Source: Bellilinea caldifistulae (GTDB taxonomy: Bacteria; Chloroflexota; Anaerolineae; Anaerolineales; Anaerolineaceae). Taken from it: a stretch of 32,000 nt of DNA. The notes beneath the pieces were generated by a model, which was not told where the DNA came from, did not search any database, and saw only the letters and a program-made list of their open reading frames with translations. The translations under genes and the position numbers were made by a program. Below are positions 2,361 through 32,000 of this stretch, piece after piece. Within the stretch, counting starts at the first letter, position 1; the number at the start of each line of letters is the position of its first letter. The stretch is taken from positions 4,044 to 36,043 of the forward strand of contig NZ_LGHJ01000027.1 in the NCBI RefSeq assembly GCF_001306055.1. The letters run 5' to 3'.

Positions 2361-3335
2361 ATGAGTGGACTGACCAAATCCGAACGATTGGAAGAAATGA
2401 AACGATTATACATTCAACGGGCATATTCCGATAAGGAACTGGCTGAACGGTTGGGAGTAAACAGAACACAAATTTATCGGGATCGAATCGAACTTTCCCG
2501 TGAATATCCGATAGAAAAAGATCAAAATGGACGGTATCACATTCCTCGCTCAAAACTGCTTTCAGAAATCAAGGTCAACCTTCTCGAAGCACTTACCCTC
2601 TATCTGGCTGCCAGCAAAATAGCCCGCCAAACCCGAGTTTATCACCCCCCCGCTGCCAACGCCGTCGAAAAACTGGCTGCGGTCTTACGCCAGCCAATGA
2701 CGGAACAACTGCTGAACTCTGCCAACCGTCTCTTGAATCAAGAGAAAAAACCGGAAAAGATCAAAATCCTTGAAACCATTGCTCAGGCATGGGTGGAGCA
2801 GCGCAAAGTCCGAATGGAATATCAACGTCTGGGGCATGATGAAATTACGCGGCACACTATCAGTCCCTATCTGATCGAACCTTCTATCTGGAGTGACAGT
2901 GTCTATGTCATTGCTCAAAGCGACTTCAACGATAAAATTTATCCCTTCAAAATAGACCGAATCCTTTCCGCCTTCCTGACCAGCGAAACTTTTGCAATTC
3001 CCTCATCTTTTAGCTCAGAGGACTTGTTGAAACATGCCTGGGGAATCTGGTATGCCGACCGCGAACCGGTTACCGTAAAACTGCGGTTTTTCCCCTCTCC
3101 AACCGTCATTCAACGGTTAGAGGAAAGTATCTGGCATCCGTTAGAGCGCGTCGAGAAAACCGAAGATGGCGGTCGAATCTGGAGCGTGGAAATTGCCGAT
3201 TGGCGCGAGATGCTCCCCTGGATACGAGGATGGGGCGCCGATGTGGAAGTGCTGGAACCGCCAGATCTGCGCTCCGCGTTGGAAAAAGAAGCCAGAAGAA
3301 TGGCAAAATTGTATGGGATGGGAGATCTTAATACG
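2361..3335 (+). other. HTH-WYL-WCX transcription-factor-like module forming residues ~1-325 of the Cas3 ORF
   Basis: wHTH: YSDKELAERLGVNRTQIYRDRIEL...NGRYHI. WYL-like: RHTISPYLIEP..SVYVIAQSDFNDKIYPFKIDRILSAF. WCX-like: VTVKLRFFPS...WGADVEVLEPPDLRSAL. The canonical Cas3 N terminus (FFAHRRED..NWQPLIEHL) begins only at ~aa 330. Confidence 0.75.
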
Positions 3336-5582: not shown

Positions 5583-5693
5583 TTCAACCACTGCGAGGAG
5601 AGTGAAGTCTACCGCAGCCATTTCCCTGCAGAAGCGGAAGATCTCTCGTTATTTTACACCTCGCATTGACAATCACGAAAGGAGGTTCAAATT

Positions 5694-6359
5694 ATGGGAT
5701 ACGGCATCATCATCCGCGTTGAAGGCTCTTATGCCCTGTTCACTCGCCCCGAAATGAAAGTGGAGCGCGTCAGTTACGATGTCATCACGCCCTCGGCGGC
5801 ACGCGGGATTATCGAGGCGGTTTATTGGAAACCCGCTATCCGTTGGGTAATTGATAAAATCCATGTCCTGCGCGAAATTCAATTTACCAACATTCGTCGC
5901 AACGAGGTGAGCAGTAAAGCATCGGTGGACAATGCCTTGCAAGTGATGAAGGGCGCGCAAAAACCGCTCTACATCGCTGCTACCGAAACTCGTCAACAGC
6001 GCGCTGCAATGGTTTTAAAAGATGTGGATTATGTCATCGAGGCGCATTTCGATTTGACAGACAAGGCCGGCCCGGACGATACACAGGAGAAGCATTACAA
6101 CGTGGTTTTGCGCCGTCTGCGTAACGGTCAGCGCTTTCACACCCCCTGCCTGGGGACTCGTGAGTTTCCTGCCAAGGTAACGCTCATCGAGGATAAAGAC
6201 GACATCCCCAAAAGCCCGCTTGTGGGCAAGCGTGACCTGGGTTACATGCTTTACGACCTGGATTTCTCCAACCCTCGCGACATTCAGCCAATGTTCTTCC
6301 GAGCGGTTATGGAAAATGGCGTTATTGTTGTGCCGAAGCCTGAGGAGGTGCGGCGATGA
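5694..6359 (+). CDS. cas5: Cas5c (Cas5d) pre-crRNA endoribonuclease/Cascade subunit
   Basis: N terminus GYGIIIRVEGSYALFTRPEMKVERVSYDVITPSAARGIIEAVYWKP is typical of Cas5 in I-C. AGGAGG SD lies upstream. The stop overlaps the cas8c start (ATGA). Confidence 0.92.
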   Translation: MGYGIIIRVEGSYALFTRPEMKVERVSYDVITPSAARGIIEAVYWKPAIRWVIDKIHVLREIQFTNIRRNEVSSKASVDNALQVMKGAQKPLYIAATETRQQRAAMVLKDVDYVIEAHFDLTDKAGPDDTQEKHYNVVLRRLRNGQRFHTPCLGTREFPAKVTLIEDKDDIPKSPLVGKRDLGYMLYDLDFSNPRDIQPMFFRAVMENGVIVVPKPEEVRR

Positions 6360-8269
6360 TCTTGCAATCGCTCTATAACTACTACCAGATTTTGCGCGAA
6401 GACCCCGACGTAGAGATTGCCGAGCCCGGCTATAGCAATGCCCCTGTCAGTTATGCTCTCAATTTATCTGAAAACGGTGATCTGCTAGACATCGTACCGC
6501 TGTTTGTCCCTGTTCAATCCGGGAAAAAGACAGTGGAGAGACCCCGCCGAATGAATGTACCAGAGCAAGTCAAGCGTAGTGTCAACGTTGCGGCAAATTT
6601 CCTGTGTGATAACGCTGCTTATGTCCTTGGGCTCACCGGAAAAGAAGCAAAAGACCCGGAGTATTCCCAAAAGCGATTTGAGGCTTTTCGGAAACTAAAT
6701 GTAGAAATTCTTTCTGGAGTTAATACCCCTTTAGCTCGTGCAGTGATTTCTTTCTTGCAAAAATACGATCCCTCAACCGCTTTACAGAATCCCGTAATTT
6801 CACGCCATCTGGAAGGATTGATGGAAGGTGGTAATCTTATCTTTCAGGTTGAAGGCAAGAATGTGCTGGACGACCCTCAAGTCAGGAGCGTTTGGGAGGA
6901 GTATAAAACCGGGCAAAAAGCGGCTGTCATGCAATGTCTGGTCACTGGTGAAATTGAGCCGGTTGAACGTCTGCATCCAGACATAAAAGGAGTTCGAGAT
7001 GCCCAAAGCAAAGGCGCTTCTCTGGTTAGCTTCAACCTGGATGCATTTACATCTTATGGCAGAGAACAAGGCTCGAATGCGCCCGTGAGCAAGCGGGTCG
7101 CATCAGGATATGGTGTGGCGCTCAATTATCTGCTTTCCAACCAAAACCCGAATCGCAAAATTTACTTTGGTGATACCACCGTGGTCTATTGGGCGGATGC
7201 GCCCGAAAAACGTTACGCAAGCGCTTTCTACTCTTTCCTGAATCCAGAATTCCAACAGGGGCAGGGGGAAGAAGAAACCGAAGAAACCAAAAGTGAGGAA
7301 AAACGGAAACGTGCCAAACAAGCAGAAAGAACGCTTGGCGAAGTAGCCGAATCTGTATGGCAGGTAAAAGCCATTGACCTTGCCGAGTTACACAAACAAA
7401 TTGAAAAAGAATTGGACAAAAACACGCGATTCAATATTTTGGGATTAGCCCCGAGCGCAGCGCGTTTGTCTGTGCGCTTCTTTCTCACCCAGCCGTTTGG
7501 CGTGTTCGCCGAACGCATCATGCAGCACTATGAAGACCTGCAAATCGAGAAGGAATATGTCAACCAGCCGACATATATCTCGCCCTATCGCATCCTTGCC
7601 GAATGTGTTTCGCCCAAAGTGACCTCACGCGATGAAGAAGTAAAAAAATCCTGGTCACTGTTAGGCGGTGCATTCATCCGTTCGATTCTCACGGGAACGC
7701 CTTACCCCGAAGGTTTGTACGCAGCCATTCTGAATCGTATTCGCCATGATACCGATGAATCCAGTGAAGGAGGAAGACAAAGAAGTATCAAAATCAACTA
7801 TATCCGCGCTGCCTATCTCAAGGCGCATCTCATCCGAAAGTATCGCCGTCAAGGCAATAATCCCTATCAGGAGGCTTTGCATATGTCACTCAATGAATCC
7901 TACACTCACCCGGCCTACGTGCTGGGCCGTCTGTTCGCTGTACTGGAAAAAGTACAGAGAGAATCTATTGGGACAACCATAAATGCCACCATCAAGGACC
8001 GCTACTTCACCTCTGCCTGCGCATCACCTGCCAGTGTTTTCCCAACGCTGCTACGGCTTGCCCATCATTGGACGGCGAAAGCCGAATATGGCAGCGTATC
8101 GGACAGAAAAATCCAGGACTTACTGGGCATGCTCGAGGCAAAACCCTTTCCATCGCGATTCTCGTTGGATGAGCAGGGCATTTTTGTTCTGGGCTACTAT
8201 CACCAGCGGGCTGCCTTCTACACCAAGAAGGATAATCATGCTGAGGAAACAAGTCAACCCGATGATTAA
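6356..8269 (+). CDS. cas8c: Cas8c (Csd1) large subunit
   Basis: 637 aa with the N terminus MILQSLYNYYQIL typical of Csd1. Sits between cas5 and cas7 and is translationally coupled to cas5. Confidence 0.9.
   Translation: MILQSLYNYYQILREDPDVEIAEPGYSNAPVSYALNLSENGDLLDIVPLFVPVQSGKKTVERPRRMNVPEQVKRSVNVAANFLCDNAAYVLGLTGKEAKDPEYSQKRFEAFRKLNVEILSGVNTPLARAVISFLQKYDPSTALQNPVISRHLEGLMEGGNLIFQVEGKNVLDDPQVRSVWEEYKTGQKAAVMQCLVTGEIEPVERLHPDIKGVRDAQSKGASLVSFNLDAFTSYGREQGSNAPVSKRVASGYGVALNYLLSNQNPNRKIYFGDTTVVYWADAPEKRYASAFYSFLNPEFQQGQGEEETEETKSEEKRKRAKQAERTLGEVAESVWQVKAIDLAELHKQIEKELDKNTRFNILGLAPSAARLSVRFFLTQPFGVFAERIMQHYEDLQIEKEYVNQPTYISPYRILAECVSPKVTSRDEEVKKSWSLLGGAFIRSILTGTPYPEGLYAAILNRIRHDTDESSEGGRQRSIKINYIRAAYLKAHLIRKYRRQGNNPYQEALHMSLNESYTHPAYVLGRLFAVLEKVQRESIGTTINATIKDRYFTSACASPASVFPTLLRLAHHWTAKAEYGSVSDRKIQDLLGMLEAKPFPSRFSLDEQGIFVLGYYHQRAAFYTKKDNHAEETSQPDD
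7883..8269 (+). CDS. cas11: probable Cas11c small subunit translated from an internal start within cas8c
   Basis: In-frame ATG at 7883 preceded by AGGAGG (7869-7874, 8-nt spacing). It would give a 128-aa product, MSLNESYTHPAYVLGRLFAVLEKVQ.... This matches published internal translation of Cas11 from I-C cas8c. Confidence 0.55.
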   Translation: MSLNESYTHPAYVLGRLFAVLEKVQRESIGTTINATIKDRYFTSACASPASVFPTLLRLAHHWTAKAEYGSVSDRKIQDLLGMLEAKPFPSRFSLDEQGIFVLGYYHQRAAFYTKKDNHAEETSQPDD

Positions 8270-8420
8270 TGTCATCGCAAGTGGTAAAGCGGCGAATCAA
8301 TTTACTTTCAAAGAGAGCGCTACCCTCGTATTCAAAACAAGTGAATTGGCCATCTTCCTCGGCAAGACGGAAAATTGTAAAGTTTTTTCAAAAAACCAAA
8401 ATAACAAAGGAGAATAACTC

Positions 8421-9287
8421 ATGACTACCCTTTCCAACCGCTATGAATTTGTTTTGCTCTACGACGTAGAGAACGGCAATCCGAACGGCGATCCTGATGC
8501 AGGAAATATGCCACGCATTGATCCTGAAACAGGCTACGGAATTGTCACCGACGTGTGCCTGAAGCGAAAAATTCGCAATTACGTGGAGATGATTAAGGGA
8601 GATACACCCGGTTACCGAATCTATGTCAAGGAAGGCATCCCGCTGAATGCCAATCACAGAGAAGCCTATCTTGCCGTTGGTTTAGAACCCGGCAAGAAAG
8701 CTTCAGTAGAAGGGGTAAACAAAGCCCGCGAGTGGATGTGCAAGAACTTTTATGACATCCGCACCTTTGGCGCCGTTTTGAGCGTTGGAGATAACTGCGG
8801 TCAGGTGCGCGGGCCAGTGCAATTGAACTTCTCCCGGAGCATTGACCCTATCGTTCAACAAGAAGTGACCATCACTCGCCTGACAGTCACAAGAGAGGAA
8901 GAAGCAGACAAAGAGCGCACGATTGGGCGCAAACACATCATCCCCTATGCCTTATACCGTGTTGAGGGGTATGTTTCTGCCAAATTAGCCAATGACCCGA
9001 CCAAAGGAACCGGTTTCTCTGAAGAAGATCTGCAACTGTTTTGGGAGGCGTTAATCAACATGTTTGAACATGACCGTTCGGCGGCGCGCGGAAAAATGGC
9101 AACCCGCAGATTGTTTGTTTTCAAACACGAGAGTGATTTGGGAAATGCACCCGCTCATCGGTTGTTTGAACTGATTCGGGTCAATAAAAAAGAGGGCGCC
9201 AACCCACCGCGCAGTTTTGATGATTATGAGGTGAGTGTTAACAAAGATGACCTACCCTCTGGAGTCACCCTAATTCCCATGCTCTAA
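8421..9287 (+). CDS. cas7: Cas7c (Csd2) backbone subunit
   Basis: N terminus YEFVLLYDVENGNPNGDPDAGNMPRIDPETGYGIVTDVCLKRKIRNYV is the characteristic Csd2/DevR-family sequence. AAGGAG SD lies 8 nt upstream. Confidence 0.92.
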   Translation: MTTLSNRYEFVLLYDVENGNPNGDPDAGNMPRIDPETGYGIVTDVCLKRKIRNYVEMIKGDTPGYRIYVKEGIPLNANHREAYLAVGLEPGKKASVEGVNKAREWMCKNFYDIRTFGAVLSVGDNCGQVRGPVQLNFSRSIDPIVQQEVTITRLTVTREEEADKERTIGRKHIIPYALYRVEGYVSAKLANDPTKGTGFSEEDLQLFWEALINMFEHDRSAARGKMATRRLFVFKHESDLGNAPAHRLFELIRVNKKEGANPPRSFDDYEVSVNKDDLPSGVTLIPML

Positions 9288-9301
9288 GCCAATTTCGAAA
9301 A

Positions 9302-9332
9302 CCCGGCTCCCACGTGGGGGGTGGGAGCCGGG
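9302..9332 (+). terminator. perfect 12-bp GC-rich hairpin between cas7 and cas4 (possible attenuator or RNA-stability element)
   Basis: CCCGGCTCCCAC (9302-9313) pairs with GTGGGAGCCGGG (9321-9332) around a 7-nt loop GTGGGGG. It is followed by GAATTTCCTTTT, only a weak T tract. Confidence 0.4.
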
Positions 9333-9356
9333 GAATTTCCTTTTAGGGAACTAGAT

Positions 9357-10025
9357 ATGCCCCGCGAATATACCTCCGATGACCTTTTGCCCCTTTCCGG
9401 CATCCAGCACTTCATGTTTTGCCGTCGGCAGTGGGCACTGATTCATGTCGAACAACAATGGAGAGAAAATACCTTCACCGCTGAGGGCAGGCTCTTACAC
9501 CAACGGGTAGATGATCCTTTCTTTACCGAAACCCGAAATGGAGTCATCATTGCTCGCTCGGTACCGGTTGCTTCTTACCGTTTGGGGCTTTCGGGTATAT
9601 GCGATGTGGTCGAATTCAGCGAGTCGGAAGTGGGTGTAAATCTGCCTGGCAGGCAAGGCACTTTCTTACCGGTGCCGGTGGAATACAAGCGTGGCCGCCC
9701 AAAATCCACCCCTGTGGACGAAGTTCAATTATGCGCTCAGGCAATCTGTCTGGAAGAAATGCTCTCGGTAGCCATTCCGGTTGGCTATCTATACTATGCA
9801 AAAACTCGCCACCGCACACCGGTAGAATTGACCGATAAGCTGCGTCAGCTGGTTGATAAGATCAGTGCTGAAATGCATGCCTACTACGAACGCGGATACA
9901 CTCCCAGAGTAAGAACTTCACGCGCCTGCCGTTCCTGTTCCCTGGCAGAAATTTGTCTGCCGCGCTTGCAAGAAAAATCCATGCCCGTTTCCCGCTATAT
10001 TCATCAGTGGATTGACCATGACTAA
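9357..10025 (+). CDS. cas4: Cas4 RecB-like nuclease with Fe-S cluster cysteines
   Basis: LSGIQHFMFCRRQWALIHVEQQW, DVVEF, VEYKRG and the C-terminal CRSCSLAEIC. I chose the ATG at 9357, because the GTG at 9321 lies inside the upstream hairpin. Confidence 0.9.
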   Translation: MPREYTSDDLLPLSGIQHFMFCRRQWALIHVEQQWRENTFTAEGRLLHQRVDDPFFTETRNGVIIARSVPVASYRLGLSGICDVVEFSESEVGVNLPGRQGTFLPVPVEYKRGRPKSTPVDEVQLCAQAICLEEMLSVAIPVGYLYYAKTRHRTPVELTDKLRQLVDKISAEMHAYYERGYTPRVRTSRACRSCSLAEICLPRLQEKSMPVSRYIHQWIDHD

Positions 10026-10028
10026 CCG

Positions 10029-11060
10029 ATGAAAACCCTTGCCAATGTCCTGTATATAACCACACCCGATACTTACCTCTCTCTGGATGGGGAGAACATT
10101 GTCATCAAGAAAGATGAGCATACCTCAACGCGGCTGCCCCTTCATAACTTGGAAAATATTGTCTGCTTCAACTGGCAGGGCGCCAGTCCGGCTTTGATGG
10201 GCGCCTGCGCGGAAAGAGGAATCGGATTGGCATTCCTCTCGCCGAATGGACGTTTTCTTGGGAGGGTGAGCGGCAAGATTAAGGGCAATGTTCTGCTTCG
10301 GAAGAAGCAATATCGAATTTCCGAAGAAGAGACCCCCAGTGTGCCAATTGCCTCATCATTTTTGGTTGGCAAAGTTTATAACAGCCGCAAAGTCATTGAA
10401 CGCGCCTTGCGAGACCATGCACTGCTGGTGGACAAGGTTGCCCTCTCCAAAGCTTCTTCATTCCTAAAGGAAATTTTGAGCGCATTGGTCACCTGCAAAC
10501 ACATTGCAGAATTGATGGCATTTGAAGGGAGCGCAGCAAAGATCTATTTTGGGGTCTTCGATCAGTTGATCTTGCAACAGAAAGATGATTTTCACTTTGT
10601 CGAAAGATCGCGCCGCCCGCCGTTAGATAATATGAACAGCCTGCTTTCGTTCCTTTACACCTTGCTGACTAATGAAGTGGTTTCTGCCTTGGAAGCAGTT
10701 GGACTGGATCCATACGTGGGGTTTCTTCATACCGAGCGTCCAGGTCGGCCTTCGCTTGCTCTGGATATGATGGAAGAACTGCGTCCCGTGTTTGCCGACC
10801 GATTGGCGCTTTCGCTGGTAAACCGCCGGCAAATCACTGCCAAAGGATTTACTCAAAAAGAAAGTGGCGGGATTTTGATGGATGATGAAACCCGGAAAAC
10901 GGTCATCACTGCCTGGCAGGAACGTAAAAAGGAAGAAATCGAACATCCCTACCTGAAAGAACGCATTCCCTTTGGTTTGATCCCGCATGTGCAAGCCCTG
11001 TTACTGGCTCGTCACCTGCGCGGCGATTTGGATGCCTATCCTCCTTTTTTCTGGAGCTGA
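10029..11060 (+). CDS. cas1: Cas1 integrase (I-C type)
   Basis: 343 aa with typical motifs: LYITTPDTYLSLDGENIV, RRPPLDNMNSLLSFLYTLL, LDPYVGFLH. Follows cas4 by 3 nt. Confidence 0.95.
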   Translation: MKTLANVLYITTPDTYLSLDGENIVIKKDEHTSTRLPLHNLENIVCFNWQGASPALMGACAERGIGLAFLSPNGRFLGRVSGKIKGNVLLRKKQYRISEEETPSVPIASSFLVGKVYNSRKVIERALRDHALLVDKVALSKASSFLKEILSALVTCKHIAELMAFEGSAAKIYFGVFDQLILQQKDDFHFVERSRRPPLDNMNSLLSFLYTLLTNEVVSALEAVGLDPYVGFLHTERPGRPSLALDMMEELRPVFADRLALSLVNRRQITAKGFTQKESGGILMDDETRKTVITAWQERKKEEIEHPYLKERIPFGLIPHVQALLLARHLRGDLDAYPPFFWS

Positions 11061-11093
11061 TGCGTAATTTGGTGATTATGGAAGAGGTATGAA

Positions 11094-11384
11094 ATGTTCG
11101 TTCTCATTACCTATGATGTCAACACCGAAACCGAAGCGGGAAAAAAGCGTTTGAGAAAAGTGGCCAAAGCCTGTCAGGATTACGGTCAACGGGTGCAGAA
11201 TTCGGTTTTTGAATGTGTTATTGACCCGACCCGTTTTCGGTTTTTGCGAGCCAGGCTTGAGAAATTGATTGATAAGGAAAAGGACAGCCTCCGATTTTAT
11301 TTTTTGGGCGATGAGTGGAAAAATCGGATCGAGCATATTGGAGCTAAGCCAAGCCTTGACATTACCGGAACTCTGATAACCTGA
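11094..11384 (+). CDS. cas2: Cas2
   Basis: 96 aa, MFVLITYDV...RLRKVAKACQDYGQRVQNSVFEC. Last cas gene before the array. Confidence 0.93.
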   Translation: MFVLITYDVNTETEAGKKRLRKVAKACQDYGQRVQNSVFECVIDPTRFRFLRARLEKLIDKEKDSLRFYFLGDEWKNRIEHIGAKPSLDITGTLIT

Positions 11385-11567
11385 GTATAGGGCAAGTGGT
11401 TGCGAACCTGAAGTGCACACGAAAATTCAGGGAGGTTCGCAGGAAAAACAGCACCTTAACAACAGAATATGGTAAAAGATTGATCGTTTTTCGGTAATTA
11501 TCGGGAAACCGAAAAAGAACGAAGCCAACATCTGGCGTTTTGGGGATTAAAACCGCCAGATGTTGCT
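11385..11567 (+). promoter_or_regulatory. CRISPR leader (183 bp) containing three hairpins
   Basis: Lies between the cas2 stop and repeat 1, upstream of the array in the repeat-defined transcription direction. The hairpins are at 11401-11441, 11487-11516 and 11526-11565. Confidence 0.6.
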
Positions 11568-14500
11568 GTCGCTCCCCCCACGGGGAGCGTGGATTGAAAC
11601 ATTGAAGCGTTGGAACAAGCAGAGGAAACTAGCCATGGTCGCTCCCCCCACGGGGAGCGTGGATTGAAACGCCTCTGGTGCGGAATTATCGAGATTGATG
11701 ACAGGTCGCTCCCCCCACGGGGAGCGTGGATTGAAACTCGGTGGGAGGGTATTTGTAGACTTTGCTCCTCCGTCGCTCCCCCCACGGGGAGCGTGGATTG
11801 AAACACTGAGTGGCTCGGCCATTGGTCAACCGCTGGAGTCGCTCCCCCCACGGGGAGCGTGGATTGAAACAGGTGGTTGGCGAATTTGAGCGCATGTCTG
11901 CGACTCGTCGCTCCCCCCACGGGGAGCGTGGATTGAAACTCCTCAAAGACCTTGGACGGAGACCGGATGCCCAAGGTCGCTCCCCCCACGGGGAGCGTGG
12001 ATTGAAACTACATGGCTGATACTCAAGCGGAGTTGGACGCGGGTCGCTCCCCCCACGGGGAGCGTGGATTGAAACTCAATATATTTGTGACAAAAATAGA
12101 GATATTGTCAGTCGCTCCCCCCACGGGGAGCGTGGATTGAAACGGGGTGACGAAGGGCGGAACAGGGTAAATCTGTAACGTCGCTCCCCCCACGGGGAGC
12201 GTGGATTGAAACTTACATGTCCGCTAGATGCGGACGGTTTCGTAGCGTCGCTCCCCCCACGGGGAGCGTGGATTGAAACAAAGAACAATCACTTTGAACC
12301 CGAACGGTGCTTTGTCGCTCCCCCCACGGGGAGCGTGGATTGAAACCAGGCTGCGAGCCGGTCGCGCCAACTGTCTTGGCGCGTCGCTCCCCCCACGGGG
12401 AGCGTGGATTGAAACACGTGTTCTAGCCATGGTTTTACCTCTTTTGGATGTCGCTCCCCCCACGGGGAGCGTGGATTGAAACTCAACGAGAGTAGCGGTG
12501 TCGCTTTCCGCCAGCGATCGTCGCTCCCCCCACGGGGAGCGTGGATTGAAACCAGGCTGCGAGCCGGTCGCGCCAACTGTCTTGGCGGTCGCTCCCCCCA
12601 CGGGGAGCGTGGATTGAAACTCAGCTGTAGTTGCGACTACCGTTAGGTTTTCCGGGTCGCTCCCCCCACGGGGAGCGTGGATTGAAACTACTCTAGCGTG
12701 CTTCCTACCTATATGCCTCCGGGTCGCTCCCCCCACGGGGAGCGTGGATTGAAACAATAATTATATGGTTGAAAGTGTTTACGGTTATTTGTCGCTCCCC
12801 CCACGGGGAGCGTGGATTGAAACTTGGAGCAAACCGACCCAGCCATAAGAGCCGCTCAAGTCGCTCCCCCCACGGGGAGCGTGGATTGAAACCCAGAAGT
12901 AGATTTTGGGATCTCCAACTTTACCTCGTCGCTCCCCCCACGGGGAGCGTGGATTGAAACAGAAGTTTCTCTTCAATTCTTTCGATGAACCCCAGTCGCT
13001 CCCCCCACGGGGAGCGTGGATTGAAACACTCCATTAGCCGTTGTAAAATTACCGCCAGCGTGTCGCTCCCCCCACGGGGAGCGTGGATTGAAACTCGAGG
13101 CTTGCAAACGACTTGAAAAGAGGTTGAAATGGTCGCTCCCCCCACGGGGAGCGTGGATTGAAACACTTCTTAAACCGCTTTGCCCACTTGCCCTCTTTGT
13201 CGCTCCCCCCACGGGGAGCGTGGATTGAAACCGTGCTGTCAAGTACTTTCTGCAACTTTTTAACTTGTCGCTCCCCCCACGGGGAGCGTGGATTGAAACA
13301 GGTGTGAGCAAATAATTCGCTCAACTTCCATCAGTCGCTCCCCCCACGGGGAGCGTGGATTGAAACCATGACGTGGTCGCTCACCGATAAAAATGCACTG
13401 TCGCTCCCCCCACGGGGAGCGTGGATTGAAACCCAAACGTCAACGCCGATCGTGGTTTTAGATAAGTGTCGCTCCCCCCACGGGGAGCGTGGATTGAAAC
13501 TTGTTCTGCGGTCGTATCCGGTTGTTCGCCTTTGGTCGCTCCCCCCACGGGGAGCGTGGATTGAAACACGAGTAATACCAGCACGGAGGATGCAGGGAAA
13601 GTCGCTCCCCCCACGGGGAGCGTGGATTGAAACGATTTGCTCTGGCGTAACAACCTCTCCCGTGCTTGTCGCTCCCCCCACGGGGAGCGTGGATTGAAAC
13701 CGGGAAGGAAGGCAAACTCGATTTTATTGGCGGCTTGTCGCTCCCCCCACGGGGAGCGTGGATTGAAACGCCTGCCTCCAATTCCCACACACCACCTGCA
13801 ACGTGTCGCTCCCCCCACGGGGAGCGTGGATTGAAACAGACGCTGTGAGGTATGAGATGGCTATCAAACTAGTCGCTCCCCCCACGGGGAGCGTGGATTG
13901 AAACTGCTTACAACGACCTGGTTGCTGAGAGCCGTGTCGGTCGCTCCCCCCACGGGGAGCGTGGATTGAAACTGGGTTCAATAGTACTGTCAGGTCTCTC
14001 GCAGTCGGTCGCTCCCCCCACGGGGAGCGTGGATTGAAACATCAATTAATACGATCGTCTCTACAGCCGAATATTGTCGCTCCCCCCACGGGGAGCGTGG
14101 ATTGAAACTGTCACAAATATATTGAAAAGTGTATACTAATAATCGTCGCTCCCCCCACGGGGAGCGTGGATTGAAACTGAGGGGATACTACCGGAATCGG
14201 AGGAAAGAACGGTGTCGCTCCCCCCACGGGGAGCGTGGATTGAAACTGTCGCCCCGCTGCCGGAGGACGGCGAGCGGTGGGTCGCTCCCCCCCACGGGGA
14301 GCGTGGATTGAAACGAGAAAATCAAAGCCGGACTGGTCGGCTCGTCAGAGTCGCTCCCCCCCACGGGGAGCGTGGATTGAAACGTGTAGAACGGCTCGAA
14401 CTCAGCGATGTAATGGCGGTCGCTCCCCCCCACGGGGAGCGTGGATTGAAACTTTGAGAAGAACTTTTGCTACAAGACTTTTGACCGCCGTCGCTCCCCC

Positions 14501-17500
14501 CCACGGGGAGCGTGGATTGAAACCTGATGCCCGTGCGCGTACTGTGGAGCGCGCGGGGTCGCTCCCCCCCACGGGGAGCGTGGATTGAAACTTTCTTGCG
14601 TTTGCGTACACGCCCGATGCCGGGCGGTCGCTCCCCCCCACGGGGAGCGTGGATTGAAACAAACTTTTGCGCGAGATAACTACTGGAAAAGCGAGTCGCT
14701 CCCCCCCACGGGGAGCGTGGATTGAAACTTCTTGCGTTTGCGTACACGCCCGATGCCGGGCGGTCGCTCCCCCCCACGGGGAGCGTGGATTGAAACCCGG
14801 AAGTTGATCTCAACGAGTACTGGGATTATGTCGCTCCCCCCCACGGGGAGCGTGGATTGAAACGCCCGTGTCGTGGGGCAGGCGTTCGGCCTGTGCGGTC
14901 GCTCCCCCCCACGGGGAGCGTGGATTGAAACGTCATTGTCATGGCGTTCGTGGTCATCCCGCTGGGGTCGCTCCCCCCCACGGGGAGCGTGGATTGAAAC
15001 ACCGCACGCTCACGGTTATCGCCCATCGCCCAAGGTCGCTCCCCCCCACGGGGAGCGTGGATTGAAACGTCAGAAAAGGAACGCTATGCGTTCCTCATGC
15101 CGGTCGCTCCCCCCCACGGGGAGCGTGGATTGAAACTGAATTACCGGAGGAATTACTGCAAACACGAAGGGTCGCTCCCCCCCACGGGGAGCGTGGATTG
15201 AAACCGTAAACTCGCGGCTGCTCATGCGCGCCAGTCCGGGTCGCTCCCCCCCACGGGGAGCGTGGATTGAAACGCTCATTGCTTGCGCTCGCGGTAACCT
15301 CTGCGCGCGGTCGCTCCCCCCCACGGGGAGCGTGGATTGAAACTTCCGAAAGTCGCCAGACGGTCGTATCTCGTGCCGGGTCGCTCCCCCCCACGGGGAG
15401 CGTGGATTGAAACGCATTGATGCAGTGTCCATACCTCGATCCGCGACCGTCGCTCCCCCCCACGGGGAGCGTGGATTGAAACACGGTAGACCGGGTGGAC
15501 ATCGTTGGTGTGGTCAGTCGCTCCCCCCCACGGGGAGCGTGGATTGAAACGGTTGCGGGTGGCGTCACAACACGGACGTTCATTGTCGCTCCCCCCCACG
15601 GGGAGCGTGGATTGAAACACTAGACCCTCCCGCGATAAAACATAGCCCTCGCGTCGCTCCCCCCCACGGGGAGCGTGGATTGAAACGGATGGATAGATAC
15701 CCATTGTCGTATTCCAATGCGTCGCTCCCCCCCACGGGGAGCGTGGATTGAAACACGTCAAATCAGGAAAGCGAGGCCAGATGCGATGTCGCTCCCCCCC
15801 ACGGGGAGCGTGGATTGAAACGAGCCGCTGGGTCGCGATACGGACAGCCTGGACGTCGCTCCCCCCCACGGGGAGCGTGGATTGAAACGGCGATATAAAA
15901 CGACTTGCGGACATAATCCCAGTGTCGCTCCCCCCCACGGGGAGCGTGGATTGAAACTGCGCACTGCGTTAATCGTTTTTTTGCGCACGGTTGTCGCTCC
16001 CCCCCACGGGGAGCGTGGATTGAAACCACCCAATGGGTGGTGCATGACGGATATTCGCGGGTGTCGCTCCCCCCCACGGGGAGCGTGGATTGAAACATCC
16101 TCCTGCTGTGCCGCAGCCAGTAGCAGCGACCGTCGCTCCCCCCCACGGGGAGCGTGGATTGAAACTGGATCGTCATCTACTGCCTCGTCAATCTCGCGGG
16201 TCGCTCCCCCCCACGGGGAGCGTGGATTGAAACGTAGGAGTCTATCATTGATAAGGCTTCAACGGCGGTTTGTCGCTCCCCCCCACGGGGAGCGTGGATT
16301 GAAACTTCGTAGTACCGCCGCGCGTCATCGTAGATTTTCGTCGCTCCCCCCCACGGGGAGCGTGGATTGAAACCCCGCCGGATCAACCGCCGCGACCAGG
16401 TTGTCCGGTCGCTCCCCCCCACGGGGAGCGTGGATTGAAACGTCCAAGGCCAGGTTGGTGGCCATCACGGTCAGCGTCGCTCCCCCCCACGGGGAGCGTG
16501 GATTGAAACAATTTGATATTGAATCAGACTTTACCCCCCAAATGTCGCTCCCCCCCACGGGGAGCGTGGATTGAAACTACGAAAAGAACATTTAACAATT
16601 TCGAGTCATCGGTCGCTCCCCCCCACGGGGAGCGTGGATTGAAACCCGTTGTCGCGAAGCAAGATGAGCATGGTCTCGTCGCTCCCCCCCACGGGGAGCG
16701 TGGATTGAAACGGAAACGGCGCGAGGCGCACGGCGTCAGCCGCTCGTCGCTCCCCCCCACGGGGAGCGTGGATTGAAACTGGATGGTAATCGTAATAATC
16801 CATCGCCTCGTAAAGTCGCTCCCCCCACGGGGAGCGTGGATTGAAACGGAACGTTGTAATCGAGCATGATTACAACTTCCACGTCGCTCCCCCCACGGGG
16901 AGCGTGGATTGAAACAGGTATAGCGGTTCGTTGTATTCAATCTTTGTTCGTGTCGCTCCCCCCACGGGGAGCGTGGATTGAAACGAATCCGAACGGCGCT
17001 TTGGCCGCCGGTTCTTTGTCGCTCCCCCCACGGGGAGCGTGGATTGAAACCAACCTATCCCGCCAGGACAGGCGGGACGCCTGGGTCGCTCCCCCCACGG
17101 GGAGCGTGGATTGAAACACATCGTTGCTGGTGACTGACGTCACCGAATCGCGTCGCTCCCCCCACGGGGAGCGTGGATTGAAACTTTTAACTATATTTTT
17201 ATATCTTTCTGGCAAACGGGTCGCTCCCCCCACGGGGAGCGTGGATTGAAACAGCCATTGCCAGTCTCCAAGTCAACTTCGTCCAGCGTCGCTCCCCCCA
17301 TGGGGAGCGTGGATTGAAACCATAATGCAAGAAGTTTTACCCGAAAATCTTTTGTCGCTCCCCCCACGGGGAGCGTGGATTGAAACGTTTCGGTCCCGCT
17401 TTGTTGTTCCGGAGATGTCCGTCGCTCCCCCCACGGGGAGCGTGGATTGAAACTTCGGCAATCTAAAAGAAATGCTTTGGCCAACCCTGTCGCTCCCCCC

Positions 17501-19953
17501 ACGGGGAGCGTGGATTGAAACGCGAATATGAGAAGATGTATCTCATGCGCTGGGAGTCGCTCCCCCCACGGGGAGCGTGGATTGAAACGGTCACGAAATA
17601 GAAGAGTTTATGACACTCATTGCAGTCGCTCCCCCCACGGGGAGCGTGGATTGAAACAAGACCTAAACGAACTTGGTCTTATTGGCTCTTATGTCGCTCC
17701 CCCCACGGGGAGCGTGGATTGAAACAATCTCGAAGTTGGACAGCAGGAAATGTACACCTGTCGCTCCCCCCACGGGGAGCGTGGATTGAAACAAGTCGCT
17801 GAAAGTTGTCGCCGACTTGTATCTTGGGTCGCTCCCCCCACGGGGAGCGTGGATTGAAACCTCCACCTCACCGAATTCCTCGATCAATTCGGGTGTCGCT
17901 CCCCCCACGGGGAGCGTGGATTGAAACGCTCCCCAATGCTCTTGCGTCAGGCGTCCCGCCAGGTCGCTCCCCCCACGGGGAGCGTGGATTGAAACCCAGT
18001 GGTAGCGAAAACTATAACGAAATTATTACCGGCGTCGCTCCCCCCACGGGGAGCGTGGATTGAAACAGGATTGCGGCGATGTTGGACGATTGTAGTTTGG
18101 TCGCTCCCCCCACGGGGAGCGTGGATTGAAACGCCTTCGAGCCTTTCCGCGATTGACGACAGGCTGGTCGCTCCCCCCACGGGGAGCGTGGATTGAAACC
18201 AAGATCACGCTGCCCCAGAATCTCACAATTACGTCGCTCCCCCCACGGGGAGCGTGGATTGAAACACAAATAGAACGCTTATAATTGTACTGTAAAATAG
18301 GTCGCTCCCCCCACGGGGAGCGTGGATTGAAACGGTGTTTCGGGCAGTAAGACCGCAGAGGCCCAAAAGTCGCTCCCCCCACGGGGAGCGTGGATTGAAA
18401 CCGGCATACTGGTCGGCATACTGGTACTGGTCGGCGGTCGCTCCCCCCACGGGGAGCGTGGATTGAAACTCCCGCTTTTCGGCAACCTGCATGAGATACC
18501 AGTCGTCGCTCCCCCCACGGGGAGCGTGGATTGAAACATTGAAAAACCACATTAAAATATCAGATAACTTAGTCGCTCCCCCCACGGGGAGCGTGGATTG
18601 AAACACCTCACTCAACTCCTCTATCACGAAGGATTCTTGGCGCTCCCCCCACGGGGAGCGTGGATTGAAACTCTGTCTGTCTGTCTGGCTGGCTTGCCTG
18701 TTGCCGTCGCTCCCCCCACGGGGAGCGTGGATTGAAACACTTTCGCTCAGCACGCGGATACACGCGAATACGTCGCTCCCCCCACGGGGAGCGTGGATTG
18801 AAACCAGTAGGGGTTTTTGTTCCAGTTAAAAATCTCAAGTCGCTCCCCCCACGGGGAGCGTGGATTGAAACTCCGTTTTCGGCAAAACAGCTTTTTCTCG
18901 CGGCGTCGCTCCCCCCACGGGGAGCGTGGATTGAAACACTTTCGCTCAGCACGCGGATACACGCGAATACGTCGCTCCCCCCACGGGGAGCGTGGATTGA
19001 AACCAGTAGGGGTTTTTGTTCCAGTTAAAAATCTCAAGTCGCTCCCCCCACGGGGAGCGTGGATTGAAACTTCGAGATTGCCAAATTTCAGTTTATCGTA
19101 GCTGTGTCGCTCCCCCCACGGGGAGCGTGGATTGAAACTCATCCTCATTGATGGCAACCAAGCGGCGCGCTGTCGCTCCCCCCACGGGGAGCGTGGATTG
19201 AAACGCTACGCTCATTTATCCTCAAGTCCAGACTGCTTGTCGCTCCCCCCACGGGGAGCGTGGATTGAAACGAGTAATCTAAGTTTAGATCATTGCAGAC
19301 TCTACGTCGCTCCCCCCACGGGGAGCGTGGATTGAAACGCTCGTAATCGTATGCTCCGCGTCCAGCCGAATGGTCGCTCCCCCCACGGGGAGCGTGGATT
19401 GAAACTTATTTGCTTGTTAAAAATATTGGGCTTAATGATGGTCGCTCCCCCCACGGGGAGCGTGGATTGAAACTGTTAAGGGGATTCTCACCCCTTTAAC
19501 ATATATTTGTCGCTCCCCCCACGGGGAGCGTGGATTGAAACTATTTTGTTAATAGTAAAACCTTACAAAACCCTAGTCGCTCCCCCCACGGGGAGCGTGG
19601 ATTGAAACCCATATATTTGAAATTACGTGTATCGGGTTGGGGCGTCGCTCCCCCCACGGGGAGCGTGGATTGAAACAATCATCTTTACGATTATACACCT
19701 AGTACACGTTTATCGTCGCTCCCCCCACGGGGAGCGTGGATTGAAACATCCCCTCTATCCTTTTTGTAATTCTTTCAATCAGTGTCGCTCCCCCCACGGG
19801 GAGCGTGGATTGAAACGGGCTTGCAGACGCTGGAAATCTCTTTTTCGATGGTCGCTCCCCCCACGGGGAGCGTGGATTGAAACCCCCCTCTGATACTGAA
19901 AATTGTAATCATGCTCAACAGTCGCTCCCCCCACGGGGAGCGTGGATTGAAAC
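11568..19953 (+). CRISPR. type I-C CRISPR array, 124 repeats / 123 spacers
   Basis: The repeat is GTCGCTCCCCCCACGGGGAGCGTGGATTGAAAC (33 nt), with a 7-bp stem GCTCCCC/GGGGAGC and the ATTGAAAC 3' tail typical of I-C. Spacers are 32-38 nt. All units were located by hand. Orientation follows the repeat 3' tail and the cas2-proximal leader. Confidence 0.99.
14281..16779 (+). repeat. internal block of 37 consecutive variant repeats (repeats 41-77) with 7 instead of 6 C (34 nt)
   Basis: GTCGCTCCCCCCCACGGGGAGCGTGGATTGAAAC. The first copy is at 14281 and the last at 16746-16779. It is flanked by 40 (leader side) and 47 (trailer side) 6-C repeats. The extra C falls in the hairpin loop. Confidence 0.95.
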
Positions 19954-30848: not shown

Positions 30849-30872
30849 GAGCCGGACTGGGTAGTCCGGCTC
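30849..30872. other. perfect 10-bp hairpin at the G+C-composition boundary
   Basis: GAGCCGGACT-GGGT-AGTCCGGCTC. There is no T/A tract on either side, so this is not a classical terminator. Confidence 0.35.
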
Positions 30873-30949
30873 AATTCCCGCAGGGGTTAGCCCGCATAGG
30901 CGGATTGCAGGCTGAGGAACGCCCGCGCCATGCGCTGCAAGTGGATGCC

Positions 30950-31279
30950 TTAGGGCTTTCCTTGTGGGTCATAGCCCTTGCCATCCGTGTTTGCAGCCCA
31001 GCGCACCCATTCCTGCCCGGCGGGGCCAGACTTCCACACTTCGGCAATCGTTTTGTCTTTCATCTTGCCAAAGTGGATGATGGTCTGACCCGGATCGGCC
31101 AGTTCCACTTCCCGTACACATCCCTCCGGATAGAGGGACGCCTGTTCATACTGCCCTGCCAAACCCGCCCTGCCGGAGTTACACCAGCGGGACTGCGAGG
31201 GCGGTTTGGCAAAGATTTGTTTTTGAAGGTACTGCGCCCCTTCGGGCAGGTCAGTCCTGCGGGATTTACACCCACACAC
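30950..31279 (-). CDS. hypothetical protein (start uncertain)
   Basis: 109-codon ORF with a GTG start and no obvious SD. The C-terminal IIHFGKMKDKTIAEVW...WVRW resembles the FGKxKGKT..W motif of small phage-associated proteins. It lies in the GC-rich insert, where spurious ORFs are common. Confidence 0.35.
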   Translation of the reverse strand: MCGCKSRRTDLPEGAQYLQKQIFAKPPSQSRWCNSGRAGLAGQYEQASLYPEGCVREVELADPGQTIIHFGKMKDKTIAEVWKSGPAGQEWVRWAANTDGKGYDPQGKP

Positions 31280-31303
31280 GGCGCTCTGCGGAGCGGTAAA
31301 TTT

Positions 31304-31330
31304 GGAGAGGGGCTTTGTAAGCCGCTCTCC
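31304..31330 (-). repeat. hairpin motif copy 1
   Basis: + strand reads GGAGAG-G-GGC-TTTGTAA-GCC-G-CTCTCC. Located between the small ORF stop and the next ORF. Confidence 0.6.
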
Positions 31331-31344
31331 GGGGGGACGGGGAC

Positions 31345-31506
31345 TTACCGCCTGCGGGTCAAAAGCGTGATGATGACCTCGCGCTCATCCTTGTCTTTTG
31401 CCTGTTTTAGCATCCGAAGGATGAAGTATTTTTGCGCCAGGTCATACGCAATCAGCAACACGGCAAAGATGACCAGCAGGGGGATTGCTTGGAGCAGTTG
31501 GTTCAC
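31345..31506 (-). CDS. 53-aa small membrane peptide (one TM helix plus charged tail)
   Basis: GTG start at 31506 with GGAGGTG SD (31521-31515) at 8-nt spacing. Product: MNQLLQAIPLLVIFAVLLIAYDLAQKYFILRMLKQAKDKDEREVIITLLTRRR. The upstream part of the 164-aa track ORF is occupied by RNA hairpins. Confidence 0.5.
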   Translation of the reverse strand: MNQLLQAIPLLVIFAVLLIAYDLAQKYFILRMLKQAKDKDEREVIITLLTRRR

Positions 31507-31638
31507 ATTTGGCTCACCTCCTTTCGTTCCCCACGCCGAAGGGAGAGAGCAGCCCTCTCCCGCAGGAATGGAGAACGAAAGGGACTTGTCCCAGTGGACG
31601 CCGGTAAGCCGGTGAACCGCTCGCTTGTTAAAGTCCTG

Positions 31639-31661
31639 CCACGGGCTTTGTAAGCCGGTGG
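31639..31661 (-). repeat. hairpin motif copy 2
   Basis: + strand reads CCAC-G-GGC-TTTGTAA-GCC-G-GTGG. Confidence 0.6.
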
Positions 31662-31717
31662 AAAGTGGCTGTCCGGGAGTTGCACCCAGAAGGCGGCTTA
31701 TCCGCCAGCCGATAACC

Positions 31718-31758
31718 AAAAAACCCGTTGGCAAATGCTTTCGCATTCGTCCAACGGG
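31718..31758 (-). terminator. Rho-independent terminator
   Basis: The - strand reads CCCGTTGG-ACG-AATGC-GAAA-GCATT-TG-CCAACGGG followed by TTTTTT (A6 at 31718-31723 on the + strand). Confidence 0.65.
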
Positions 31759-31775
31759 CTTTGTTAGCCGGTTTG
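31751..31775 (-). repeat. hairpin motif copy 3 (overlaps the terminator 5' arm)
   Basis: + strand reads CCAAC-G-GGC-TTTGTTA-GCC-G-GTTTG, with one outer-stem mismatch. Positions 31751-31758 are shared with the terminator stem. Confidence 0.55.
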
Positions 31776-31799
31776 ACGCTTTGACGCTTTCAGTTAGGT

Positions 31800-31822
31800 G
31801 GAGGGGCTTTGTGAGCCGCTCC
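31800..31822 (-). repeat. hairpin motif copy 4 (at the predicted 5' end of the transcript)
   Basis: + strand reads GGAG-G-GGC-TTTGTGA-GCC-G-CTCC. Confidence 0.6.
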
Positions 31823-31829
31823 TGACCGT

Positions 31830-31858
31830 ATTCTAGCAAAAGAAAAGACAGAGTGCAA
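31830..31858 (-). promoter_or_regulatory. sigma70-type promoter with extended -10
   Basis: The - strand reads TTGCAC (31858-31853), a 17-nt spacer ending in TGC, and TAGAAT (31835-31830). Confidence 0.5.
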
Positions 31859-32000
31859 GTGGCTTTTCAAAATGAGATTGTTGAAAAACAAACAACTGGG
31901 ATTGACGAAAAGGGGAAAACCTTAATACAATCGAACCAAACCACTTTGGAGATCAGCGGGATGGAAAAGCAGCGTTTCGAAGAAACCGGCAAAGGATCAT

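Follow-up and report, generated by a model that had tools for sequence, protein, structure and literature searches.

Hairpins, a terminator and a boxA-like motif in the leader of an Anaerolineae mobile-element operon: a candidate antitermination region

A 32,000-nt stretch of Bellilinea caldifistulae DNA (contig NZ_LGHJ01000027.1; hereafter the window) carries on its minus strand four hairpins with a common core, one of which overlaps an intrinsic terminator, grouped around a 53-codon gene for a small membrane protein. The question raised by this locus is what the hairpins control, and whether they belong to a known regulatory system. A sequence-only reading had taken them for a self-contained module in which antitermination, similar to that at ribonucleic antiterminator (RAT) or N-utilisation (nut) sites, governs a single peptide. 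Comparison with related loci did not uphold that picture: the hairpins lie in a 5′ control region, predicted to be transcribed, at the head of the multi-gene right-hand operon of a mobile element of Anaerolineae (Chloroflexota) that bears an integrase, and the copy in the window is a relic. The system is most likely an undescribed variant of antitermination of the phage-lambda/ribosomal RNA operon (rrn) type.

Conserved structure of the leader

The whole module or part of it was obtained for 15 loci from homologue contigs, one metagenome scan and one genome scan, and a sixteenth locus, L010, holds only the downstream part of the element. These loci (given L numbers below) come from Anaerolineae metagenome-assembled genomes (MAGs) and metagenomes. 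The module is ~770 nt long, with the four hairpins in equal positions at every other locus that spans the whole leader, and these loci keep one order: promoter, hairpin 4, hairpin 3/terminator, T-loop domain, hairpin 2, Shine-Dalgarno (SD) helix, peptide gene, hairpin 1 and structured RNA. The corresponding features of the window, with the evidence for each, are:

31830-31858, minus strand: promoter with -35 and extended -10 TGCTAGAAT; predicted start ~31823; conserved in 11 leaders.
31800-31822, minus strand: hairpin 4 at the 5′ end of the transcript, GGAG-C-GGCU-CACAA-AGCC-C-CUCC; covariance model, 37 bits, E 1e-6.
31751-31775, minus strand: hairpin 3, the anti-terminator candidate; lone fold -9.6 kcal/mol and covariance-model match.
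31718-31758, minus strand: intrinsic terminator with an 8 + 7 bp stem, GAAA loop and U6; fold energy, and compensatory and U.G changes.
31667-31710, minus strand: first T-loop domain, P1 GGCUG/CAGCC around the hairpin GGCGG-AUAAG-CCGCC and the T-arm-like CUGGG-UGCAACU-CCCGG (31673-31689); fold and cross-locus pairs.
31639-31661, minus strand: hairpin 2, in the boxB position, CCAC-C-GGCU-UACAA-AGCC-C-GUGG; lone fold and covariance model.
31625-31636, minus strand: boxA-like GGACUUUAACAA, starting 2 nt past hairpin 2 and predicted to be single-stranded; its CUUUAACAA equals the Escherichia coli rrn boxA core.
31520-31582, minus strand: SD helix enclosing the hairpin GGGAGAG...CUCUCCC; fold and cross-locus comparison.
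31345-31506, minus strand: 53-codon gene, GTG at 31506 to TAA at 31345; homologues and the ratio of non-synonymous to synonymous change (pN/pS).
31304-31330, minus strand: hairpin 1, the post-gene hairpin of the peptide gene, 14 nt past its stop codon; lone fold and covariance model.
31103-31303, minus strand: truncated 3′ structured RNA with T-loop hairpins at 31259-31275 and 31172-31188 and a hairpin at 31121-31138; conserved, fold z -2.9.

Homology among the loci starts at the -35 box, and the DNA further upstream varies from locus to locus. The promoter consists of TTGCAC (31858-31853), a 17-nt spacer ending in TGC, and TAGAAT (31835-31830). Because of the TGC, TGCTAGAAT is an extended -10, and because the -35 box agrees at only 3/6 positions, the promoter is absent from a simple consensus-scan list. 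Its pattern, TTGCRC-17-(TGC)TARAAT, is kept in all 11 distinct leaders compared despite their differing upstream DNA, in agreement with the promoter that the sequence-only reading had called at these positions.

The hairpin core GGGCTTTGTNAGCCG occurs in the window in 4 exact copies, compared with 0.2 expected; a fifth match, with 2 mismatches at 365-379, was rejected as unrelated. Each hairpin folds alone into an outer stem, a 1x1 C.C internal loop and a GGC(U)-loop-(A)GCC top, with energies between -9.6 and -17.1 kcal/mol (z -2.9 to -5.2). Pairing was counted after 21 distinct variants, paralogous as well as orthologous, had been aligned in a fixed register, with N as a loop placeholder, because the varying loop lengths led RNAalifold to mis-register hairpin 2. 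In this alignment 97.3% of the cells are paired, compared with 73.5% in shuffles (0/500 reach 97.3%) and 21-54% when the register is slid, and changes on both sides were seen in 4/7 pairs. Between clades the outer stem of hairpin 1 changes from G-C to C-G, an orthologous compensatory change, and the inner stem of hairpin 4 covaries (GGCU/AGCC, GUCC/GGAC, GUC/GAC). The C.C mismatch is present in every intact copy at every locus, barring one U.C in hairpin 4 of L008; hairpin 4 of L002 and L009, where the outer stem is degenerate, is an exception to the rule. The four hairpins are thus a selected structure of the minus-strand transcript, and they lie where they had first been placed, with the fixed core, complementary outer stems and constant mismatch described for them.

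A covariance model built from the 21 variants, a check which the sequence-only reading had suggested, was searched against the window and eight other loci (~92 kb). In the window it returned only the four copies, all on the minus strand (E 1e-6 to 1e-5; next match E = 3), and nothing in the other 31 kb. Wherever a whole leader was covered, it found four hairpins per module in orthologous positions and on the sense strand only, with no copy outside the module at E <0.05 in the eight loci. As the matches are confined to the module, the hairpins are not a dispersed repeat of the repetitive extragenic palindrome (REP), bacterial interspersed mosaic element or miniature inverted-repeat transposable element (MITE) type, which removes the REP/MITE alternative that had been named earlier. 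Kissing loops between the hairpin loops and the T-loop hairpins, which are complementary in the window (UUACA / UGUAA), were rejected, there being no covariation in L001 or L002. An 11-nt insertion between hairpins 4 and 3 (31777-31795, minus strand) makes a tandem duplication, AAAGCGTCAAAGCGTCAAAC, in the window copy only.

The terminator stem (31758-31724), followed by U6 (31723-31718), folds with -26.7 kcal/mol (z -6.7) and has 31751-31758 in common with the far weaker hairpin 3. Because the 3′ arm of hairpin 3 is the 5′ arm of the terminator, hairpin 3 is a candidate anti-terminator; this overlap, noticed from the window alone, is kept in all 11 leaders. Furthermore, the terminator shows compensatory and U.G changes across loci. 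RNAalifold on the 11 leaders, in which loop lengths vary, chose the terminator over hairpin 3. In L008 (9765-9795) the upper terminator is exactly inverted, as the reverse complement of that in L003, L005, L006 and L007, with the hairpin retained.

The leader as a whole (327 nt) folds with z = -8.6 relative to shuffles. The helix that occludes the SD comprises 14 bp including one U.G (31569-31582 with 31520-31533) and covers the first two G of the SD GGAGG (31517-31521), which lies partly within it; occlusion and position had been called correctly, and the size had been given as 13 bp with one mismatch. Among homologues this helix shows one two-sided change (G-C to U-A), six one-sided C-G/U-G changes and no broken pair, and the closing pair of the T-hairpins appears as C-G, U.G or U-A. 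Such C-G / U.G / U-A intermediates, which occur in the terminator as well, show that it is the sense strand that folds.

The protein encoded by the 53-codon gene has an N-terminal transmembrane (TM) helix and a charged tail ending in Arg. Its homologues form five clusters, the best from Bellilinea caldifistulae (Anaerolineae), where the peptide gene is 98% identical, plus two more distant ones; they are 49-54 aa long, keep frame and length, and give pN/pS of 0.31-0.56, with pS up to 0.84, against 76-94% identity of the non-coding leader to the window. The open reading frame (ORF) is therefore a real small-protein gene, as had been proposed, and the RNA around it is at least as constrained. No Pfam or PHROG family includes the protein, and it had no match in the toxin/defence-related libraries searched.

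Downstream of the ORF lie ~200 nt of conserved structured RNA with T-loop hairpins, which the sequence-only reading had missed. The P1 stems of its T-loop units covary, and homologues run ~350 nt further, up to the next gene. A scan of the window with Rfam 15 gave 0 matches at the gathering threshold. With the limit relaxed to E = 10, the window and loci gave only noise-level or sub-threshold matches, so that no described RNA family matches. Among these, group-II-D1D4-2 and Guanidine-II were rejected (no domain V/VI, wrong loops).

A boxA-like motif along the operon and in the CRISPR leader

The peptide gene is the first cistron of an operon whose further co-oriented small genes encode DUF4942, RadC-like, SWIM, DksA/TraR-like zinc-finger and Rad52/Erf-like annealing proteins. 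An intact operon of 6.4 kb occupies the chromosomal site of the window in L009, a Chloroflexota MAG. In 10/11 leaders the boxA-like GGACUUUAACA follows hairpin 2 after 2-3 nt, and L009 has GGACUUUUACA. In the intact elements that were mapped (L009 and L001), the motif (G/A)NAC(C/U)UUAACA (GCACCUUAACA) recurs in every spacer, on the sense strand and a few nucleotides past a hairpin. The pattern AC[CUA]UU[AU]ACA has four matches in L001 (0.13 expected per strand) and six in L009 (0.35 expected), all of them on the sense strand, inside the operon and a few nucleotides past a hairpin; a minus-strand match at 5831 of L011 was taken as chance in AT-rich DNA. Six of the seven ORF or ORF-block ends of L009 have a hairpin 0-15 nt past the stop codon, and at the seventh (Rad52-like) the distance is 33 nt. 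These post-ORF hairpins are of the type ...GGC-YACC(C/A) or CACAA-GCC..., and hairpin 1 is that of the peptide gene.

Outside the element, the motif is found in the leader of a clustered regularly interspaced short palindromic repeats (CRISPR) array in the same window:

11451-11462, plus strand: host boxA-like GCACCTTAACAA in the CRISPR leader, a comparator outside the element, 105 nt before the first repeat and with a hairpin (11402-11440) ahead of it.

The 12-mer GCACCUUAACAA of this leader is identical to the intercistronic motif of the element. The surrounding 11450-11465 reads AGCACCTTAACAACAG, which shares its first 13 nt (AGCACCTTAACAA) with spacer copies at L001 11573 and L010 3203, and the hairpin ahead is GCGAACC...GGTTCGC. 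It is established that boxA in CRISPR leaders promotes full-length array transcription (Stringer et al., 2020, cited in PMC7862264 and in bioRxiv 10.64898/2026.07.09.737519), and in one reported case the boxA of a type I-C array equals the rrn boxA of the same organism (bioRxiv 10.64898/2026.07.09.737519). The motif is read as the boxA of the lineage because the CRISPR leader of the window, a setting in which boxA is known to act, has it in identical form. Judged by sequence and setting, the CRISPR-leader copy is probably the host's boxA, and ACCUUAACA may thus represent the boxA of this lineage.

The E. coli rrn boxA is UGCUCUUUA, extended to CACugcucuuuaacaauuua, within the rrn order boxB, boxA, boxC (PMC2724277; PMC6614801), and the gammaproteobacterial consensus is GYTCTTTAANA / GNTCTTTAANA (PMC5725501). 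In cyanobacteria, the boxA of the rrn spacer, GAACCTTGAAAA, adjoins the boxB helix. The leader copy GGACTTTAACAA agrees with 8/9 specified positions of the E. coli consensus (GNTCTTTAANA / UGCUCUUUAACAA) and with 9/9 of the core CUUUAACAA. Spacer copies (GCACCTTAACA) agree at 7/9 consensus positions and differ at positions 3 and 5, yet there they agree with cyanobacterial GAACCTT. The motif thus joins a 5′ half equal to the cyanobacterial rrn boxA GAACCUU, with GNACCUU common to both, to the 3′ half of E. coli, UUAACAA. As in rrn antitermination, a hairpin precedes a linear, predicted single-stranded boxA-like motif with the E. coli CUUUAACAA, and the site lies early in a long, structured, poorly translated transcript and is repeated downstream, as in the rrn leader and spacer. 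In contrast to rrn, the motif lies in the mRNA operon of a mobile element, where it reaches 6-8 copies per 6 kb; at positions 3 and 5 it is of the GNACCUU type also seen in cyanobacteria, the T-loop domain around it has no known rrn counterpart, and no boxC was identified. With CRISPR leaders, the element shares the identical 12-mer behind a hairpin and upstream of long untranslated RNA; the host array leader has a single copy, whereas the invader reiterates it between its protein cistrons.

Hairpin 2 resembles the boxB of phage P22, GCGCUGACAAAGCGC (PMC11480772). Hairpin 2 of L001 and L011 (GGCUGACAAAGCC / CGGCUGACAAAGCCC) matches P22 boxB 11/11 over GCUGACAAAGC, and the window copies differ from it at the first loop base only, giving a core that is 10-11/11 identical. 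Hairpin 2 ends 2 nt before the motif and the spacer copies lie within a few nucleotides of their hairpins, which places a hairpin next to boxA on the nascent RNA. Lambdoid nut sites likewise serve the early operon of a mobile element, occur several times per genome ahead of terminators, and have the same or nearly the same CU-NACAA-AG top. However, in the element boxB precedes boxA, a conserved C.C lies below a top stem of 3-4 bp, the first loop base is variable, and only one of the four hairpin copies stands with boxA, while another overlaps a terminator, a feature that nut sites can do without. The loop GACAA occurs in hairpin 2 of L001 and L011 only, the others having UACAA, CACAA, AACAA, ACCA or CACCC. 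The resemblance to P22 boxB is therefore one of form and position, not of membership among lambdoid N-boxB pairs. The nut-like guess of the sequence-only reading gains support from the boxA-like motif past hairpin 2, the P22-like core and the identity with the CRISPR leader, and is partly right.

Two further recurrent RNA structures were seen in the element:

L009 2072-7930; L001 10229-13916; window 31172-31188, 31259-31275 and 31673-31689: T-loop units in element spacers, identified by recurrence.
L009 3105-3180, 5185-5263, 5925-6003 and 7540-7615; L001 10640-10720: pre-SD structured element, directly upstream of the SD.

In many spacers the T-loop unit consists of P1 around a variable joiner and the T-arm-like hairpin GGUGCAAnUCC, then UGAYYU and a second hairpin, of the GNRA or YACC kind, followed by boxA. 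The second hairpin of the first unit is hairpin 2, and its motif is GGACUUUAACAA. P1 covaries between copies (CUCC/GGAG, CCCC/GGGG, CCUG/CAGG, CCCUG/CAGGG), and the unit, which recurs in the element's spacers, may be a new RNA motif. The pre-SD element, which is conserved and covaries, precedes several element genes (CCCCGCUGCACCGGGG...GGUGCAGAC-GGCGGGAGAAGGAGG), and its alternative pairings involve an SD-proximal G-run.

A proposed mechanism and its rivals

Processive antitermination by boxA and Nus factors is known for ribosomal RNA, CRISPR arrays, lambdoid phages and a small number of host genes, and nearly all of these cases come from Proteobacteria. For the present leader, we put at about even the chance that a nut/rrn-like antitermination site and a hairpin-versus-terminator attenuator together control the whole element operon, and not the peptide alone. 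Transcription, the hairpin-binding factor, Nus binding and antitermination, which we infer from the structures described above, would follow one another as set out here. The strong extended -10 promoter would start an RNA whose first 25 nt form hairpin 4. Some 50 nt on, hairpin 3 would compete with the far more stable terminator, and by default the transcript would end at the U6 tract as an RNA of ~105 nt. A factor reading the C.C / GGCU-NACAA-AGCC core would presumably stabilise hairpin 3, and the polymerase would pass. The T-loop domain, hairpin 2 in the boxB position and the boxA-like motif could then form a nut/rrn-type site that loads the host NusB-NusE/Nus complex and makes elongation processive, with GGACUUUAACAAG and GCACCUUAACAGG as candidate target sequences of NusB-NusE (S10). 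Repetition of hairpin and boxA in each long untranslated spacer would carry the polymerase through post-ORF hairpins and Rho-prone RNA to the last gene. The small membrane protein, as first cistron, may be poorly translated unless the leader is remodelled, because its SD and start codon are held in the conserved helix. Two layers of control are proposed because rrn-type complexes are reported to act on Rho-dependent, not intrinsic, terminators (PMC2724277) and the early terminator precedes the first boxA.

A bolder extension, which we regard as possible but doubtful, is that the element carries an undescribed RNA 'punctuation', in which the RNA behind each cistron bears a hairpin, a T-loop domain and a copied host boxA that hijacks rRNA/CRISPR antitermination. 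The four boxB-like C.C hairpins would then be read by a new factor, possibly the Arg-tailed peptide of the element or a host protein, which switches the attenuator.

Several observations weigh against antitermination of this kind. The early terminator sits upstream of the first boxA-like motif, and as rrn-type complexes are reportedly restricted to Rho-dependent sites, boxA cannot account for its passage. Inspection and profile searches, the only means used, recognised no N-like arginine-rich protein in the element. Compared with the gammaproteobacterial GNTCTTTAANA, the motif differs at positions 3 and 5; its leader copy differs at position 3 and, if the stricter GYTCTTTAANA is applied, at position 2 as well. 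A literature search yielded no rrn boxA of Chloroflexi, and the label 'host boxA' is taken from the CRISPR-leader copy only. The first loop base of the hairpins varies among U, C, A and G, and some clades have ACCA or CACCC loops, so that the GNRA-like boxB fold of the P22/lambda type is not conserved. In addition, sequence diversity is modest (five clades at 76-94% identity), and the covariation signal is owed partly to the comparison of paralogous hairpins.

The position of the terminator, ahead of the first boxA-like motif, means that something else must handle it, and the conserved overlap with hairpin 3 would suit factor-dependent attenuation of the RAT kind as the sole control. A dedicated protein would stabilise hairpin 3, and possibly the others, with the boxA-like motif incidental or part of the fold; the invariant core and C.C mismatch of the four hairpins fit a single reader. 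As in the RAT systems of BglG, SacY and LicT, a strong terminator takes its 5′ half from the 3′ half of a weak, imperfect hairpin, and a stabilised hairpin would therefore give read-through. However, only this overlap geometry remains of the RAT-like membership suggested by the sequence-only reading. No RAT consensus and no CAT/PRD domain was present at any locus, no element copy has a CAT-PRD or other known antiterminator gene, and three further hairpin copies are free of terminator overlap. As this explanation also leaves the sense-only recurrence of boxA in every spacer and its identity with the CRISPR leader unexplained, we consider it unlikely.

Just as unlikely is that the structures act in RNA processing or stability, as protective stem-loops or endonuclease sites (T7 RNase III- or REP-like), with the T-arm-like units mimicking tRNA for RNase P or RNase Z. 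Hairpins close behind six of seven stop positions in L009 and hairpin 4 at the extreme 5′ end are what such a function would predict, and the T-loop hairpins stack on P1 as a T-arm does on the acceptor stem, in an operon that is closed by a genuine tRNA gene at L001 and L011. RNase III would require longer stems than these, though, P1 and T stem together give 9-10 bp instead of 12, and there is no CCA-like tail. Processing leaves the terminator overlap and the boxA identity unexplained; it is compatible with the proposed antitermination and does not exclude it.

With its small single-TM peptide, charged at the tail, its long structured leader and the occlusion of SD and start codon, the locus also recalls type I toxin mRNAs such as hok and tisB, a likeness drawn already by the sequence-only reading, and the gene is intact even in the relic. 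In such a cassette, a structured mRNA would keep a toxic 53-aa membrane peptide untranslated in the manner of hok, with the hairpins as part of the fold. The partner is missing, however: no antisense promoter or conserved antisense RNA was found, and the structural signals lie on the sense strand only. The peptide heads a longer operon of uniform RNA architecture, in which hairpin and boxA continue before ordinary genes (DUF4942, RadC, Rad52-like), and the libraries of toxin/defence-related proteins searched contained nothing like it. A toxin cassette is thus improbable.

Still less probable is a function of the hairpins as DNA, in which single strands would fold for attC-like cassette shuffling by the tyrosine recombinase or for single-strand replication or transfer. 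The tyrosine recombinase gene adjoins the module, every ORF has a hairpin behind it, L001 and L009 differ in gene order, and the inversion in L008 is centred on a hairpin. Against this, no RYYYAAC / GTTRRRY core sites (the R″/R′ pair of integron attC) were found, the spacers of 120-420 nt have their own RNA motifs and SD-proximal structures, the hairpins occur in association with a promoter, a U-tract terminator and an SD, and the deletion junction in the window lies at a microhomology and not at a hairpin. An origin as the remnant of a group II intron, or as a portion of some large non-coding RNA, which sub-threshold Rfam matches to group-II-D1D4-2 over hairpin 1 and the next T-loop hairpin (L004 279-370, 31.2 bits; L005 563-655, 25.8 bits; gathering 36) and whole hairpin domains inserted or deleted in the 3′ RNA might suggest, is the least probable explanation, given that no locus has domain V/VI (RF00029) or a GUGYG 5′ end, that L009 and the window have no match, and that the RNA is interleaved with protein genes under selection. 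None of these rivals explains the sense-only reiteration of boxA together with its identity in the CRISPR leader.

The element, its relic and the CRISPR array

Directly upstream of the module, L001, L003, L005 and L014-L016 have a tyrosine recombinase gene and a small Holliday-junction-resolvase-like gene (PHROG 244). In L002, L008 and L011-L013, one or two reverse-oriented genes stand between integrase and module, and L009 has cargo similar to that of L002 upstream, with the integrase beyond the fetched locus. The promoter of L006 directly adjoins chromosomal znuABC and a DtxR-like gene. At some loci the last gene of the operon is a tRNA gene, whose identity differs (tRNA-Val at L001 13940-14016, directly preceded by a T-loop unit; tRNA-Asp at L011 11041-11118), which could be cargo or the integration site. 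In L009 (5645-5821), a 58-aa ORF has a weak match to the DksA/TraR C4 zinc finger (E 5e-5, just under the Pfam cut-off), and by this similarity its product is a possible binder of the RNA polymerase secondary channel.

The site of the intact L009 operon and that of the window have common neighbours, the flanking ADP-ribosylglycohydrolase and GATase1-like proteins being 90% and 86% identical, respectively. What remains of the element in the window is:

30849-31866, minus strand: whole relic, comprising promoter, leader, peptide gene, truncated 3′ RNA, and Rad52-like tail with its hairpin; homology to L001, L002 and L009, from the -35 box to the terminal hairpin.
30950-31108, minus strand: C-terminal fragment of the Rad52/Erf-like protein, last ~50 residues; 47-48% identity to the C-termini in L001 and L008, weak ExoX-like_C match, DNA continuity with L001 13785-13870.
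30849-30872, minus strand: post-ORF hairpin of the Rad52-like gene, GAGCCGGAC-UACCCA-GUCCGGCUC; last element feature before the drop in G+C.

Homology to the module ends at ~31103, where the final 50 codons of the Rad52-like gene take over, followed by the hairpin of that gene; G+C then falls at 30849 from the ~55% of the relic to the ~43% of the flanking chromosome. What the window has is therefore a relic of ~1 kb with an internal deletion, and the deletion junction, ~31102/31103, lies at a G(Y)GGAAC microhomology. A 109-aa ORF at 30950-31279 was rejected as a gene, because only its last ~50 codons are homologous (to the Rad52-like C-terminus) and the rest overlaps the conserved non-coding RNA. 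On the plus strand beyond the promoter, a sigma-70-like match, TTGACG-18-TACAAT (10/12), at 31902-31931 points away from the module, and an ORF starting ATGGAAAAGCAG at 31973-32000, cut by the end of the window, has no homology to any fetched locus.

BLASTN of 30850-32000 against plasmids and phages gave no match, exact-pattern scans of viral contigs for the hairpin pair, the 3′ RNA and the SD region found nothing, and a peptide-based scan of species-representative genomes was equally without a match. A scan of genomes based on DUF4942 recovered L009 and L010.

The CRISPR array of the window (11568-19953, plus strand) has 124 repeats of GTCGCTCCCCCC(C)ACGGGGAGCGTGGATTGAAAC and 123 spacers of 32-38 nt. 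The cas genes (2361-11385) run from Cas3 fused to WYL/WCX domains through a likely cas2, in a gene order that resembles type I-C. Since the array occupies the high-GC, ORF-poor stretch at 11.5-19.9 kb, it explains that stretch, which had been considered as a second copy of the element and was rejected. Six of the spacers match element DNA:

14864-14897, 14932-14966, 15001-15034, 18402-18436, 18470-18504 and 19817-19850: element-matching spacers; 100% identity.

These matches (27-35 nt) fall in a block of Tad-pilin-like / Big-domain genes just upstream of the integrase (L001 3019-6561; L002 792-4356), which belongs to the mobile element family of the hairpin relic. No spacer matches the module itself.

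The locus provides a testable candidate for the boxA of Anaerolineae, a structured RNA module composed of T-loop unit, hairpin and boxA, and a hairpin motif that can be used in a search for its ligand. If the proposed antitermination is correct, a mobile element of a distant and poorly studied phylum would reiterate a host-type boxA between all of its cistrons, combined with a family of boxB-like hairpins and a hairpin-versus-terminator switch. Through the spacers held against the element family, an invader, its relic and the immune memory of it come together within one locus.

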